Shown here: positions 3,364 to 8,865 of the stretch, piece after piece
Position numbering within the stretch: the stretch's first letter is position 1
Layout: each line of letters starts with the position of its first letter
Source: Escherichia coli
GTDB lineage: Bacteria; Pseudomonadota; Gammaproteobacteria; Enterobacterales; Enterobacteriaceae
DNA length: 64,000 bases
NCBI RefSeq assembly: GCF_029227855.1
Contig: NZ_CP074356.1
Direction: 5' to 3' (one strand)
Translations under genes and position numbers: made by a program
Notes under the pieces: generated by a model
What the model was told of the DNA's origin: nothing
Seen by the model: only the letters and a program-made list of their open reading frames with translations
Database searches by the model: none

Positions 3364-4389
3364 TTGAGTTTGATAATCTCACTTACCTCCACGGTAAACC
3401 GCAAGGCACCGGGCTGCTGAAAGCCAATCCGGAAGACTTTGTGGTGGTGGAAGATTTGGGCTTTGAGCCTGATGGTGAAGGTGAGCATATTCTGGTTAGA
3501 ATCCTCAAAAACGGCTGCAATACCCGTTTTGTGGCGGATGCACTGGCGAAATTCCTGAAAATTCATGCCCGTGAAGTCAGCTTCGCTGGGCAAAAAGACA
3601 AACATGCTGTTACGGAACAGTGGTTATGCGCTCGCGTGCCGGGCAAGGAAATGCCCGATCTGAGCGCCTTTCAACTGGAAGGCTGCCAGGTGCTGGAGTA
3701 TGCGCGGCACAAGCGCAAGCTGCGTTTAGGCGCGCTGAAAGGTAACGCCTTTACCCTGGTTCTGCGCGAAGTGAGCAATCGCGATGACGTTGAACAACGT
3801 CTGATCGATATTTGCGTAAAAGGCGTGCCTAACTATTTTGGTGCCCAACGTTTTGGGATTGGCGGTAGCAACTTGCAGGGCGCGCTGCGCTGGGCGCAAA
3901 CCAATACTCCGGTGCGCGATCGCAATAAACGGAGTTTTTGGTTGTCGGCAGCCCGCAGTGCGTTGTTTAATCAGATTGTTGCTGAGCGCCTCAAAAAAGC
4001 AGACGTTAATCAAGTTGTTGACGGCGATGCGCTACAATTAGCCGGACGTGGTAGCTGGTTTGTCGCAACCACCGAAGAACTGGCGGAATTACAGCGTCGC
4101 GTCAACGATAAAGAGCTGATGATAACCGCCGCATTGCCGGGCAGTGGCGAATGGGGAACTCAGCGTGAAGCGTTGGCATTCGAACAAGCAGCTGTCGCCG
4201 CAGAAACTGAATTACAAGCCTTACTGGTGCGCGAAAAAGTTGAAGCCGCGCGCAGAGCGATGCTGCTGTATCCGCAACAATTAAGCTGGAACTGGTGGGA
4301 TGACGTCACCGTAGAAATCCGTTTCTGGCTTCCGGCGGGAAGTTTTGCAACCAGCGTTGTCAGGGAACTTATCAACACAACAGGTGATT

Positions 4390-4409
<20 letters not shown>
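3360..4409 (+). CDS. truD: tRNA pseudouridine(13) synthase TruD
   Basis: Track ORF 349 aa; TruD family; conserved synteny. Confidence 0.93.
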
Positions 4410-5771
<1,362 letters not shown>

Positions 5772-5910
5772 AACGTGAGGAAATACCTGGATTTTTCCTG
5801 GTTATTTTGCCGCAGGTCAGCGTATCGTGAACATCTTTTCCAGTGTTCAGTATGGTGCCTTGCACGGTAATTATGTCACTGGTTATTAACCAATTTTTCC
5901 TGGGGGATAA

Positions 5911-7050
5911 ATGAGCGCGGGAAGCCCAAAATTCACCGTTCGCCGCATTGCGGCTTTGTCACTGGTTTCGCTATGGCTGGCAGGCTGTTCTGACACTTCA
6001 AATCCACCGGCCCCGGTCAGCTCCGTTAATGGCAATGCGCCTGCAAATACCAATTCTGGTATGTTGATTACGCCGCCGCCGAAAATGGGGACGACGTCTA
6101 CAGCTCAGCAACCGCAAATTCAGCCGGTACAGCAGCCACAAATTCAGGCAACTCAACAACCGCAAATCCAGCCGGTGCAGCCAGTAGCTCAGCAGCCGGT
6201 ACAGATGGAAAACGGACGCATCGTCTATAACCGTCAGTATGGGAACATTCCGAAAGGCAGTTATAGCGGCAGTACCTATACCGTGAAAAAAGGCGACACA
6301 CTTTTCTATATCGCCTGGATTACTGGCAACGATTTCCGTGACCTTGCTCAGCGCAACAATATTCAGGCACCATACGCGCTGAACGTTGGTCAGACCTTGC
6401 AGGTGGGTAATGCTTCCGGTACGCCAATCACTGGCGGAAATGCCATTACCCAGGCCGACGCAGCAGAGCAAGGAGTTGTGATCAAGCCTGCACAAAATTC
6501 CACCGTTGCTGTTGCGTCGCAACCGACAATTACGTATTCTGAGTCTTCGGGTGAACAGAGTGCTAACAAAATGTTGCCGAACAACAAGCCAACTGCGACC
6601 ACGGTCACAGCGCCTGTAACGGTACCAACAGCAAGCACAACCGAGCCGACTGTCAGCAGTACATCAACCAGTACGCCTATCTCCACCTGGCGCTGGCCGA
6701 CTGAGGGCAAAGTGATCGAAACCTTTGGCGCTTCTGAGGGGGGCAACAAGGGGATTGATATCGCAGGCAGCAAAGGACAGGCAATTATCGCGACCGCAGA
6801 TGGCCGCGTTGTTTATGCCGGTAACGCGCTGCGCGGCTACGGTAATCTGATTATCATCAAACATAATGATGATTACCTGAGTGCCTACGCCCATAACGAC
6901 ACAATGCTGGTCCGGGAACAACAAGAAGTGAAGGCGGGGCAAAAAATAGCAACCATGGGTAGCACCGGAACCAGTTCAACACGCTTGCATTTTGAAATTC
7001 GTTACAAGGGGAAATCCGTAAACCCGCTGCGTTATTTGCCGCAGCGATAA
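5911..7050 (+). CDS. nlpD: Murein hydrolase activator lipoprotein NlpD (LysM plus LytM/M23 domains)
   Basis: Track ORF 379 aa; lipobox LAGCS; Q/P-rich repeat; C-terminal M23-like domain; lies directly upstream of rpoS. Confidence 0.95.
6106..6203 (+). repeat. Imperfect tandem ~27-bp coding repeats inside nlpD, encoding QQPQIQPVQ-type units
   Basis: Repeated cagcaaccgcaaattcagccggtacag-like units visible in the sequence. Confidence 0.7.
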
Positions 7051-7112
7051 ATCGGCGGAACCAGGCTTTTGCTTGAATGTTCCGTCAAGGGATCACGGGT
7101 AGGAGCCACCTT

Positions 7113-8105
7113 ATGAGTCAGAATACGCTGAAAGTTCATGATTTAAATGAAGATGCGGAATTTGATGAGAACGGAGTTGAGGTTTTTGACGAAAAGGCCT
7201 TAGTAGAAGAGGAACCCAGTGATAACGATTTGGCCGAAGAGGAACTGTTATCGCAGGGAGCCACACAGCGTGTGCTGGACGCGACTCAGCTTTACCTTGG
7301 TGAGATTGGTTATTCACCACTGTTAACGGCCGAAGAAGAAGTTTATTTTGCGCGTCGCGCACTGCGTGGAGATGTTGCCTCCCGCCGCCGGATGATCGAG
7401 AGTAACTTGCGTCTGGTGGTAAAAATTGCCCGCCGTTATGGCAATCGTGGTCTGGCGTTGCTGGACCTGATCGAAGAGGGCAACCTGGGGCTGATCCGCG
7501 CGGTAGAGAAGTTTGACCCGGAACGTGGTTTCCGCTTCTCAACATACGCAACCTGGTGGATTCGCCAGACGATCGAACGGGCGATTATGAACCAAACCCG
7601 TACTATTCGTTTGCCTATTCACATCGTAAAGGAGCTGAACGTTTACCTGCGAACCGCACGCGAGTTGTCCCATAAACTGGACCACGAACCAAGTGCGGAA
7701 GAGATCGCAGAGCAACTGGATAAGCCAGTTGATGACGTCAGCCGTATGCTTCGTCTTAACGAGCGCATTACCTCGGTAGACACCCCGCTGGGTGGTGATT
7801 CCGAAAAAGCGTTGCTGGACATCCTGGCCGATGAAAAAGAGAACGGTCCGGAAGATACCACGCAAGATGACGATATGAAGCAGAGCATCGTCAAATGGCT
7901 GTTCGAGCTGAACGCCAAACAGCGTGAAGTACTGGCACGTCGATTCGGTTTGCTGGGGTACGAAGCGGCAACACTGGAAGATGTAGGTCGTGAAATTGGC
8001 CTCACCCGTGAACGTGTTCGCCAGATTCAGGTTGAAGGCCTGCGCCGTTTGCGCGAAATCCTGCAAACGCAGGGGCTGAATATCGAAGCGCTGTTCCGCG
8101 AGTAA
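7113..8105 (+). CDS. rpoS: RNA polymerase sigma factor RpoS (sigma-38)
   Basis: Track ORF 7077..8105; start set to the ATG encoding [21 protein letters not shown], giving 330 aa; sigma-70 family regions present. Confidence 0.95.
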
Positions 8106-8154: not shown

Positions 8155-8865
8155 TGTGCACAGAAAACCCCCAGCTAGGCTGGGGGTTCCGGAAAGCTTT
8201 CAGCTTTAAGCCAGTTATTAAAACCCCTTTTGATTTGTTAAAACACCTTGCGGTCTGGCAACTGCAAGTGTCAAACAAGAAATCAAAAGGGGGTCCCAAT
8301 GGGGAACGAAAAGAGCTTAGCGCACACCCGATGGAACTGTAAATATCACATAGTTTTTGCGCCAAAATACCGAAGACAGGTGTTCTACAGAGAGAAGCGT
8401 AGAGCAATAGGCAGTATTTTGAGAAAGCTGTGTGAGTGGAAAAGTGTACGGATTCTGGAAGCTGAATGCTGTGCAGATCATATCCATATGCTTGTGGAGA
8501 TCCCGCCCAAAATGAGCGTATCCGGCTTTATGGGATATCTGAAAGGGAAAAGCAGTCTGATGCTTTACGAGCAGTTTGGTGATTTGAAATTCAAATACAG
8601 GAACAGGGAGTTCTGGTGCAGAGGGTACTACGTCGATACGGTGGGTAAGAACACGGCGAAGATACAGGATTACATAAAGCACCAGCTTGAAGAGGATAAA
8701 ATGGGAGAGCAGTTATCGATTCCCTATCCGGGCAGCCCGTTTACGGGCCGTAAGTAACGAAGTTGGATGCAAATGTCAGATCGTGTGCGCCTGTTAGGGC
8801 GCGGCTGGTAAGAGAGCCTTATAGGCGCATTTGAAAAACCTCCGGCTATGCCGGAGGATATTTAT
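8155..8865 (+). mobile_element. IS200-family insertion sequence (IS200/IS605 family); boundaries approximate
   Basis: Intact 152-aa Y1 HUH transposase with the HxH motif; hairpin at the left end (8166..8188); imperfect stem-loop around the RBS (8226..8290); hairpin at the right end (8839..8857); overall size about 0.7 kb as expected for IS200. Confidence 0.8.
8299..8757 (+). CDS. tnpA: IS200/IS605-family transposase TnpA (Y1 HUH)
   Basis: Track ORF 8248..8757 trimmed to the ATG preceded by an AAAAGGGGG Shine-Dalgarno; product 152 aa, MGNEKSLAHTRWNCKYHIVFAPKYRR...HIHMLVEIPPK, typical IS200 TnpA. Confidence 0.9.
   Translation: MGNEKSLAHTRWNCKYHIVFAPKYRRQVFYREKRRAIGSILRKLCEWKSVRILEAECCADHIHMLVEIPPKMSVSGFMGYLKGKSSLMLYEQFGDLKFKYRNREFWCRGYYVDTVGKNTAKIQDYIKHQLEEDKMGEQLSIPYPGSPFTGRK

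Follow-up and report, generated by a model that had tools for sequence, protein, structure and literature searches.

How many copies of a short coding repeat does the lipoprotein gene nlpD carry in Escherichia coli, does that number differ enough between strains to make the length of the encoded linker variable, and what might the repeated peptide contribute to the protein? These questions are raised by a 64-kb stretch of E. coli DNA, the whole of which is called the window below. A reading based on the sequence of the window alone had noted a Q/P-rich tandem coding repeat in nlpD and had suggested that slippage would make its copy number, and with it the linker, variable among strains. We compared the repeat with the corresponding segment of complete E. 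coli genomes and with homologs from other Enterobacteriaceae.

The nlpD locus and its repeat

The nlpD coding sequence was delimited using the list of open reading frames, the RefSeq annotation at E. coli loci with the same or almost the same sequence, and Pfam. Based on the positions of the open reading frames and the RefSeq annotation of pcm and nlpD, the gene order is surE-pcm-nlpD-rpoS, as for NlpD loci. Of 5,426 complete genomes of E. coli, 5,421 matched the first 490 bp of the nlpD reading frame, and every full-length E. coli match listed carries the annotation "murein hydrolase activator NlpD". The features of the locus are the following.

4345–5151, forward strand: surE open reading frame
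5145–5771, forward strand: pcm, upstream of nlpD, annotated in the matching RefSeq loci
5911–7050, forward strand: nlpD coding sequence, 379 amino acids plus stop
5911–5988, forward strand: lipoprotein signal peptide with the lipobox L-A-G-C (SLWLAGC/SDTS); the lipidated Cys26 is encoded at 5986–5988
5989–6276, forward strand: low-complexity N-terminal linker, residues 27–122, between Cys26 and LysM (Pfam limits)
6277–6405, forward strand: LysM domain, residues 123–165 (Pfam PF01476, E = 2.7e-12, 46.8 bits, above the curated cut-off)
6745–7026, forward strand: degenerate LytM/Peptidase_M23 domain (dLytM), residues 279–372 (Pfam PF01551, E = 4.6e-33, 113.7 bits, above the curated cut-off)
7077–8105, forward strand: rpoS open reading frame, downstream of nlpD, with the ATG at 7113 from reading of the sequence

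The lipobox is invariant in 32 Enterobacteriaceae homologs of NlpD. At the other end of the protein, the canonical motifs of the M23 family are HxxxD and HxH; in the translation of nlpD both are degenerate, with N279-K-G-I-D283 in place of the former and R358-L-H360 in place of the latter. The E. coli protein is a septum-localised activator of AmiC (PMC5533458).

The repeat occupies residues 66–98 of the N-terminal linker, ahead of the LysM domain identified with Pfam, where the sequence-only reading had placed it. Residues 27–115 include 17 Q and 15 P among 89 positions, and within residues 66–98 these two amino acids account for 70%. The array and the exact direct repeats that it contains are as follows.

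6106–6129, forward strand: repeat unit U1, CAGCAACCGCAAATTCAGCCGGTA, encoding QQPQIQPV, residues 66–73
6130–6153, forward strand: repeat unit U2, CAGCAGCCACAAATTCAGGCAACT, encoding QQPQIQAT, residues 74–81
6154–6177, forward strand: repeat unit U3, CAACAACCGCAAATCCAGCCGGTG, encoding QQPQIQPV, residues 82–89
6178–6204, forward strand: degenerate 27-bp tail, CAGCCAGTAGCTCAGCAGCCGGTACAG, encoding QPVAQQPVQ, residues 90–98, in which the QPV and QQPV pieces are fragments of the unit
6109–6119 and 6157–6167, forward strand: 11-nt exact direct repeat CAACCGCAAAT, copies 48 bp apart, where both the recurrent 48-bp deletion and a 48-bp duplication have their junction
6121–6132 and 6193–6204, forward strand: 12-nt exact direct repeat CAGCCGGTACAG, copies 72 bp apart, where strain Z142-6 has the junction of its 72-bp deletion
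6115 and 6139: 9-nt exact direct repeat, copies 24 bp apart
6169–6186, forward strand: two neighbouring 9-bp QPV sub-units, CAGCCGGTG and CAGCCAGTA, one of which is missing from the 9-bp-deletion allele

The presence of a tandem coding repeat at 6106–6203 is confirmed by Tandem Repeats Finder (6104–6173, period 24, 2.9 copies, 69% matches), by the reading frame and by the annotation. When compared with 20,000 codon shuffles, its periodicity has p = 2e-4 at lag 24, or p = 0.007 when all lags from 9 to 48 are allowed, and an equal periodicity is reached by just 4 of 21,301 99-nt segments of the 64 kb, all four of which overlap the array. The unit of about 27 bp that had been proposed is incorrect. 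Self-match of the array reaches 0.63 at lag 24 and again at lag 48, compared with 0.36, the background level, at lag 27; a repeat search of the window gave start-to-start spacings of 24, 24 and 21. The period is, then, 24 bp, or 8 amino acids. The nonapeptide QQPQIQPVQ given as the repeated peptide does occur in the protein, but the unit is an octapeptide, and the ninth residue, Q, already belongs to the unit that follows. The description of three to four imperfect copies is a fair one for three units followed by a degenerate tail.

The units differ considerably more in their DNA than in their peptides. U1 and U3 are identical at 21 of 24 nucleotides, and all three differences are synonymous, while U2 shares 17 of 24 nucleotides with U1 and 15 of 24 with U3. 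The longest exact direct repeats left in the array are CAGCCGGTACAG (12 nt) and CAACCGCAAAT (11 nt). Between the window and a three-unit allele from O157:H7, aligned over 211 bp (6050–6260), there are three substitutions, all synonymous, and the peptide encoded by this segment is identical in every three-unit allele sampled. The array is an old duplication that has been maintained at the level of the peptide and not at that of the DNA. Its units have diverged in DNA, with exact repeats of no more than 12 nt, and this makes the array a weak substrate for slippage.

The repeat itself is an ordinary feature that has been known since 1994, to judge from the title of the paper by Ichikawa, Li, Fu and Clarke (J Bacteriol 176:1630-1638; cited in PMC2736372), which names "unusual amino acid repeat sequences" of NlpD. 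The repeat of E. coli K-12 lies in the same gene and at the same position and has the same peptide as that of the window, which K-12 strains match at 98.1% identity and with equal length. As far as that title goes, the feature described here does not differ from the one in K-12, and what is added is a population survey of its length alleles. Tidhar et al. (2009) refer to the repeat segment of NlpD as the "P/Q-rich region" (PMC2736372). Literature searches returned no report of a deletion in the nlpD gene of O157:H7, of repeat polymorphism in E. coli nlpD, or of a survey of repeat length in this species.

Length alleles in complete E. coli genomes

The survey drew on 5,426 complete genomes of E. 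coli, and the allele frequencies refer to 5,420 of them. Identity bands from megablast are unfit for counting alleles, as the alignment breaks into two pieces of high identity wherever a gap reaches 24 bp; when a synthetic five-unit allele was used as the megablast query, three-unit genomes covered it fully by means of two matches that share part of the record. Gaps of up to 48 bp are bridged by blastn, which makes its identity bands usable for length alleles. Allele counts were accordingly derived from bands of identity and coverage together with sampled sequences.

With positions 6050–6260 (211 bp) as the blastn query, 5,343 records fell at or above 95% identity, 14 at 90–95%, 1 at 80–90% and 62 at 60–80%. 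The identity of the last group is consistent with a gap of some 48 bp that the alignment has bridged. The synthetic five-unit query gave coverage below 80% in 63 records. A one-unit query, from which 48 bp had been removed, was matched in a single piece and at full length (161 or 163 bp, 98–99% identity) in 59 of the 60 matches listed. Finally, the allele with the 72-bp deletion, used as a query, placed 61 records at 80–90% and one at 90–95%.

Taken together, these searches assign the three-unit allele to ~98.7% of the 5,420 genomes, including K-12 MG1655 and O157:H7 strains that match at 211 bp. Length variants of the array were found in about 71 of the 5,420 (~1.3%), a count into which seven further records at 90–95% identity to 6050–6260 do not enter. 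The most frequent is a 48-bp deletion that leaves one unit (~61 genomes), followed by a 9-bp deletion that removes one QPV (7 genomes, including OkiPb01680). Single genomes carry a 72-bp deletion (Z142-6), a 48-bp gain resulting in five units (PapRG-04-4), and one further deletion between 48 and 72 bp in length, which was recognised from its identity band with the 72-bp-deletion query. All of the indels seen (3, 9, 48 and 72 bp) are in frame. In the complete E. coli genome set no match of 95% or more was obtained to a two-unit query, and the identity band expected for a four-unit allele was empty in the search with the five-unit allele. The absence of both fits the observation that U1 and U3, at an offset of 48 bp, are the pair with the best homology.

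The singleton alleles with the 72-bp loss and the 48-bp gain could be assembly errors.

Sampled sequences were used to locate the junctions. In TW14359 (O157:H7), ECCWS199 and PK8566 exactly 48 bp are missing between the copies of CAACCGCAAAT, which leaves QQPQIQPV followed by the tail, and the duplication of 48 bp in PapRG-04-4 has its junction at the same repeat. In Z142-6 it is the 72 bp between the copies of CAGCCGGTACAG that are missing, while OkiPb01680 has lost one of the two neighbouring QPV codon triplets (9 bp). Each sequenced indel junction sits at a short exact direct repeat of 11, 12 or 5 nt. Junctions placed in this manner are the pattern expected of replication slippage or of recombination at short homologies, and either process may have produced the alleles.

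Three sites, internal or flanking, distinguish the three one-unit alleles sampled (C or T at query position 2, G or C at position 56, and GTG or GTA). These alleles stand on three flanking haplotypes, and therefore the 48-bp deletion arose, or was transferred, at least three times.

The claim that copy number varies by slippage is upheld insofar as in-frame indels occur at short direct repeats, although they are rare and the number of units changes 48 or 72 bp at a time, not unit by unit. Likewise, length alleles of the linker do exist, but strain variability is confined to the ~1.3% of complete genomes mentioned above. The comparison across E. coli genomes that had been proposed as a check shows that the number of repeats is not invariant.

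The P/Q segment in other species and genera

A scan using one genome per species found two or more adjacent units coding for QQPQIQ at only eight loci. Within this set, Escherichia species and clades have three units, the type strain of E. albertii has four, and a Cedecea-like group has two together with a degenerate third. Protein searches identified three units in the NlpD of E. fergusonii, seven in an E. albertii-like protein (P0004), and, in an E. coli protein entry (P0003), a 72-bp duplication that is the reciprocal of the deletion in Z142-6. A separate protein collection contains a cluster of one-unit NlpD proteins of 363 amino acids (P0008) with 191 member sequences.

In Citrobacter, Salmonella, Enterobacter, Kosakonia, Lelliottia and others, all that can be recognised of the array is one PQIQPVQ core and a QPVA(Q/E)QPVQ tail, separated by degenerate P/Q/T/V sequence. 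No stretch of NlpD is less conserved than this P/Q segment, the protein being 80–90% identical elsewhere. Even so, Cys26 and the conserved GRIVYN motif are 66–76 amino acids apart in nearly all homologs across the genera.

Length changes are also seen in these degenerate segments. C. freundii P0050 lacks 13 amino acids in the homologous segment, and in S. Typhimurium UK-1 a 12-bp in-frame deletion in nlpD has been reported as DEL-06 (PMC3391293). The sequence deleted in DEL-06, CGCCGCAACAAG, corresponds to TPQQ, to judge from a comparison of P0037 with P0038. This event resembles those in the E. coli array in that a short direct repeat was lost in frame from the homologous P/Q segment; it differs in that it concerns another species, a degenerate sequence instead of a clean octapeptide array, and a single reported event.

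Spacer, binding motif or switch

In toto, the array is probably part of a disordered, Q/P-rich tether whose length is under stabilising selection and whose DNA sometimes slips at short direct repeats, giving rise to in-frame length alleles that are tolerated. The array encodes residues 66–98 of a tether that connects Cys26, lipidated and placed in the outer membrane, with the LysM domain, which binds peptidoglycan. It most likely belongs to an extended and flexible spacer for which length and lack of structure matter. Such a tether presumably lets LysM and dLytM reach septal peptidoglycan, which would lead to the activation of AmiC. As the units diverged at synonymous sites while the peptide was retained, exact repeats of just 9–12 nt are left, and occasional replication slippage or short-homology recombination between them may yield the rare in-frame alleles (−48, −72, −9 and +48 bp). 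The variants appear to be tolerated and may become fixed in lineages, for example in part of O157:H7. Stabilising selection would be consistent with a three-unit form in ~99% of strains and with the narrow range of linker length across the Enterobacteriaceae. What we infer here is slippage as the mechanism, selection that acts on length, and that variant alleles are tolerated.

Published work on the linker agrees with such a role. Tsang et al. (2017) predicted both linkers of NlpD to be disordered (PMC5533458). El Rayes et al. treated the N-terminal linkers of RcsF, Pal and NlpD as disordered and showed that length and disorder of the linker matter for Lol-dependent sorting (bioRxiv 10.1101/2021.01.05.425367); according to this literature, N-terminal linkers of such a type are required for efficient delivery to the outer membrane. 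When residues 29–64 were removed, ~60% of NlpD was held in the inner membrane and complementation was incomplete, a defect rescued by removal of Lpp (10.1101/2021.01.05.425367). The linker studied by these authors contains the repeat, but their deletion (29–64) stops just upstream of it (66–98). We take the disorder of the linker from its composition and from the published predictions, because an AlphaFold2 model based on 32 aligned close homologs had pLDDT values below 50 across NlpD, the known folded domains included. The spacer of TonB, with its (Glu-Pro)n and (Lys-Pro)n stretches, may offer an analogy without homology, being likewise a periodic, proline-rich segment of low complexity that connects a membrane anchor to a periplasmic domain. 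It differs in having charged E-P and K-P pairs where NlpD has Q, P, V and I, and in being anchored in the inner and not the outer membrane.

The strict conservation of the octapeptide counts against a pure spacer, because a spacer alone does not predict any constraint on sequence. The constancy of the peptide in Escherichia, with synonymous differences only, hints that the sequence may be constrained and not the length alone. An alternative that would account for this is that the octapeptides are a sequence-specific interaction motif for a septal or outer-membrane partner or for peptidoglycan, with the copy number tuning avidity. The QQPQIQPV peptide has indeed stayed constant despite synonymous drift of the DNA, the PQIQPVQ core and QPVA(Q/E)QPVQ tail are recognisable in many genera, and a fusion carrying the N-terminal linker alone showed a weak enrichment at midcell in the study of Tsang et al. 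(PMC5533458). On the other hand, the P/Q region is absent from the NlpD of Yersinia, which retains its function in cell separation (PMC2736372). In most genera, moreover, just one unit can still be recognised, the sequence after it being degenerate. O157:H7 TW14359 and EC4115 are examples of successful lineages in which single-unit alleles have been maintained, and there is no known partner. We consider a binding motif unlikely, while ranking it first among the alternatives to the tether.

Very little credence can be given to the possibility that the array is a contingency locus, i.e., a hypervariable repeat in which frequent slippage generates adaptive variation of NlpD between or within strains. 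Its length variants do have junctions at direct repeats, at least three flanking haplotypes carry the one-unit allele, and the in-frame indels in S. Typhimurium UK-1 (PMC3391293) and C. freundii P0050 are similar. However, one length prevails in ~98.7% of the 5,420 genomes, the units are only 62–88% identical in DNA with no exact repeat longer than 12 nt, and the two- and four-unit intermediates are absent. Furthermore, a unit whose length is a multiple of three makes on/off switching impossible. Of the traits of a hypervariable repeat, the array has the head-to-tail arrangement of units, but neither near-identical DNA units nor common differences in copy number nor a frame-switching unit. Allele frequencies, unit divergence and in-frame unit length led us to reject a contingency locus. 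Being nearly fixed at three units, the array is neither a general typing marker nor a phase-variable switch.

It is just as improbable that the periodic DNA acts as a nucleic acid, whether as a regulatory element of rpoS or nlpD or through an antisense product, with the peptide repeat being incidental. The two genes form an operon with the main rpoS promoter inside nlpD (PMC3391293), and mechanically called antisense reading frames overlap the array. A scan of 5750–7150 detected no promoter-like site on either strand, and terminator-like sites were at chance level. The rpoS promoter lies several hundred bases downstream of the repeat. In addition, the variation in the array is synonymous, so that the DNA is free to change while the peptide is retained, which is the opposite of what an element of this kind would be expected to show. 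An element at the level of DNA or RNA was rejected on account of the synonymous drift and of promoter and terminator signals not exceeding chance.

That the repeat number is truly invariant and the length alleles are sequencing or assembly errors is hardly credible, and was rejected for the common variants though possible for singletons, given that the 72-bp loss, the 48-bp gain and one intermediate deletion are each confined to a single genome, while the one-unit allele recurs with an identical junction in ~61 complete genomes sequenced independently in many laboratories, the 9-bp-deletion allele is found in 7, the one-unit cluster P0008 and its 191 members come from a separate protein collection, and an array of 99 bp is easily spanned by single reads.

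The natural alleles of one, three, five and, in the E. albertii-like protein, seven units provide a length series in which the effects of the tether on lipoprotein sorting and amidase activation could be followed. The one-unit allele, in which 16 amino acids are lost, is fixed in a sublineage of O157:H7 that includes TW14359, EC4115, SS17 and SS52, and occurs on at least two other haplotypes. We regard it as quite doubtful that this allele is not neutral, that is, that its recurrence reflects selection and not a mutational hotspot alone. If that were so, the shorter tether could alter the sorting of NlpD to the outer membrane or the timing of AmiC activation, and properties of the envelope, cell separation or the interaction with the host could change. 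The one-unit carriers among the matches listed include EC4115, TW14359, SS17, SS52 and JEONG-1266. Over 563 bp, the deletion and 2 SNPs are all that separates O157:H7 TW14359 from TR01, an O157:H7 strain with three units. From the carriers listed it follows that the one-unit allele marks a sublineage within O157:H7, for which the 48-bp deletion in nlpD is a clean marker.

Length variation in the E. coli NlpD linker

Within the octapeptide array of nlpD (three 24-bp units, 6106–6177, with a degenerate tail), a deletion of between 48 and 72 bp was found in a single complete E. coli genome, and seven E. coli genomes share 90–95% identity with the 211-bp query that spans the array (window 6050–6260). 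The low-complexity linker (residues 27–122) also contains a short triplet run, located outside of the array:

6073–6081, (CCG)3 run, encoding P55–P57 of the NlpD linker

The strains A30 and G47-1 have one CCG fewer in this run, which is a second, small slippage site in the linker.

Linker changes in other enteric bacteria

The NlpD homologue cluster P0050 from Citrobacter freundii (284 member sequences) has lost 13 amino acids in frame when compared with the homologues P0034 and P0078. This deletion lies between two QIQPV motifs, in the homologous segment of the NlpD linker, and a 12-bp in-frame deletion has been described from the same region of nlpD in S. Typhimurium UK-1 (PMC3391293). In the NlpD of Salmonella bongori (P0055), the linker reads MLNHTAAKNGNDDAADTATSAANSTCS at a position where its relatives carry a stretch of 10 residues and, further on, PQIQPVQ. 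The P/Q region of P0055 looks like the product of a frameshift that is compensated further along.

Start codon, apparent gene fusions and the surrounding locus

In the current RefSeq annotation, nlpD starts at an in-frame TTG (codon 16, window 5956), giving a product of 364 amino acids (e.g., the protein P0005), while the alternative ATG at window 5911 gives 379. The length of the signal peptide differs between the two starts; the lipobox is common to both. In three sequences, P0045 and P0092 (560 and 550 amino acids) and P0087 (403 amino acids), NlpD is fused with domains of the UbiD-like or sigma-factor type (Pfam PF20696/PF01977 and PF04545). Such fusions probably stem either from errors in gene calling or assembly or from rearrangement of the nlpD-rpoS locus.

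Of the 5,426 complete E. coli genomes, five or six lack any match to the 5' end of nlpD, which suggests that a few strains have lost the nlpD region. In NZ_CP038394.1 (O55:H7 DEC5A), only 49 nt match the nlpD 5' end, and the feature located there is annotated as a formate hydrogenlyase activator. The rpoS-mutS region is polymorphic between E. coli strains. Directly 3' of rpoS, the window contains a further reading frame:

8299–8757, + strand, IS200-like transposase ORF (Pfam Y1_Tnp, E = 3.8e-38)
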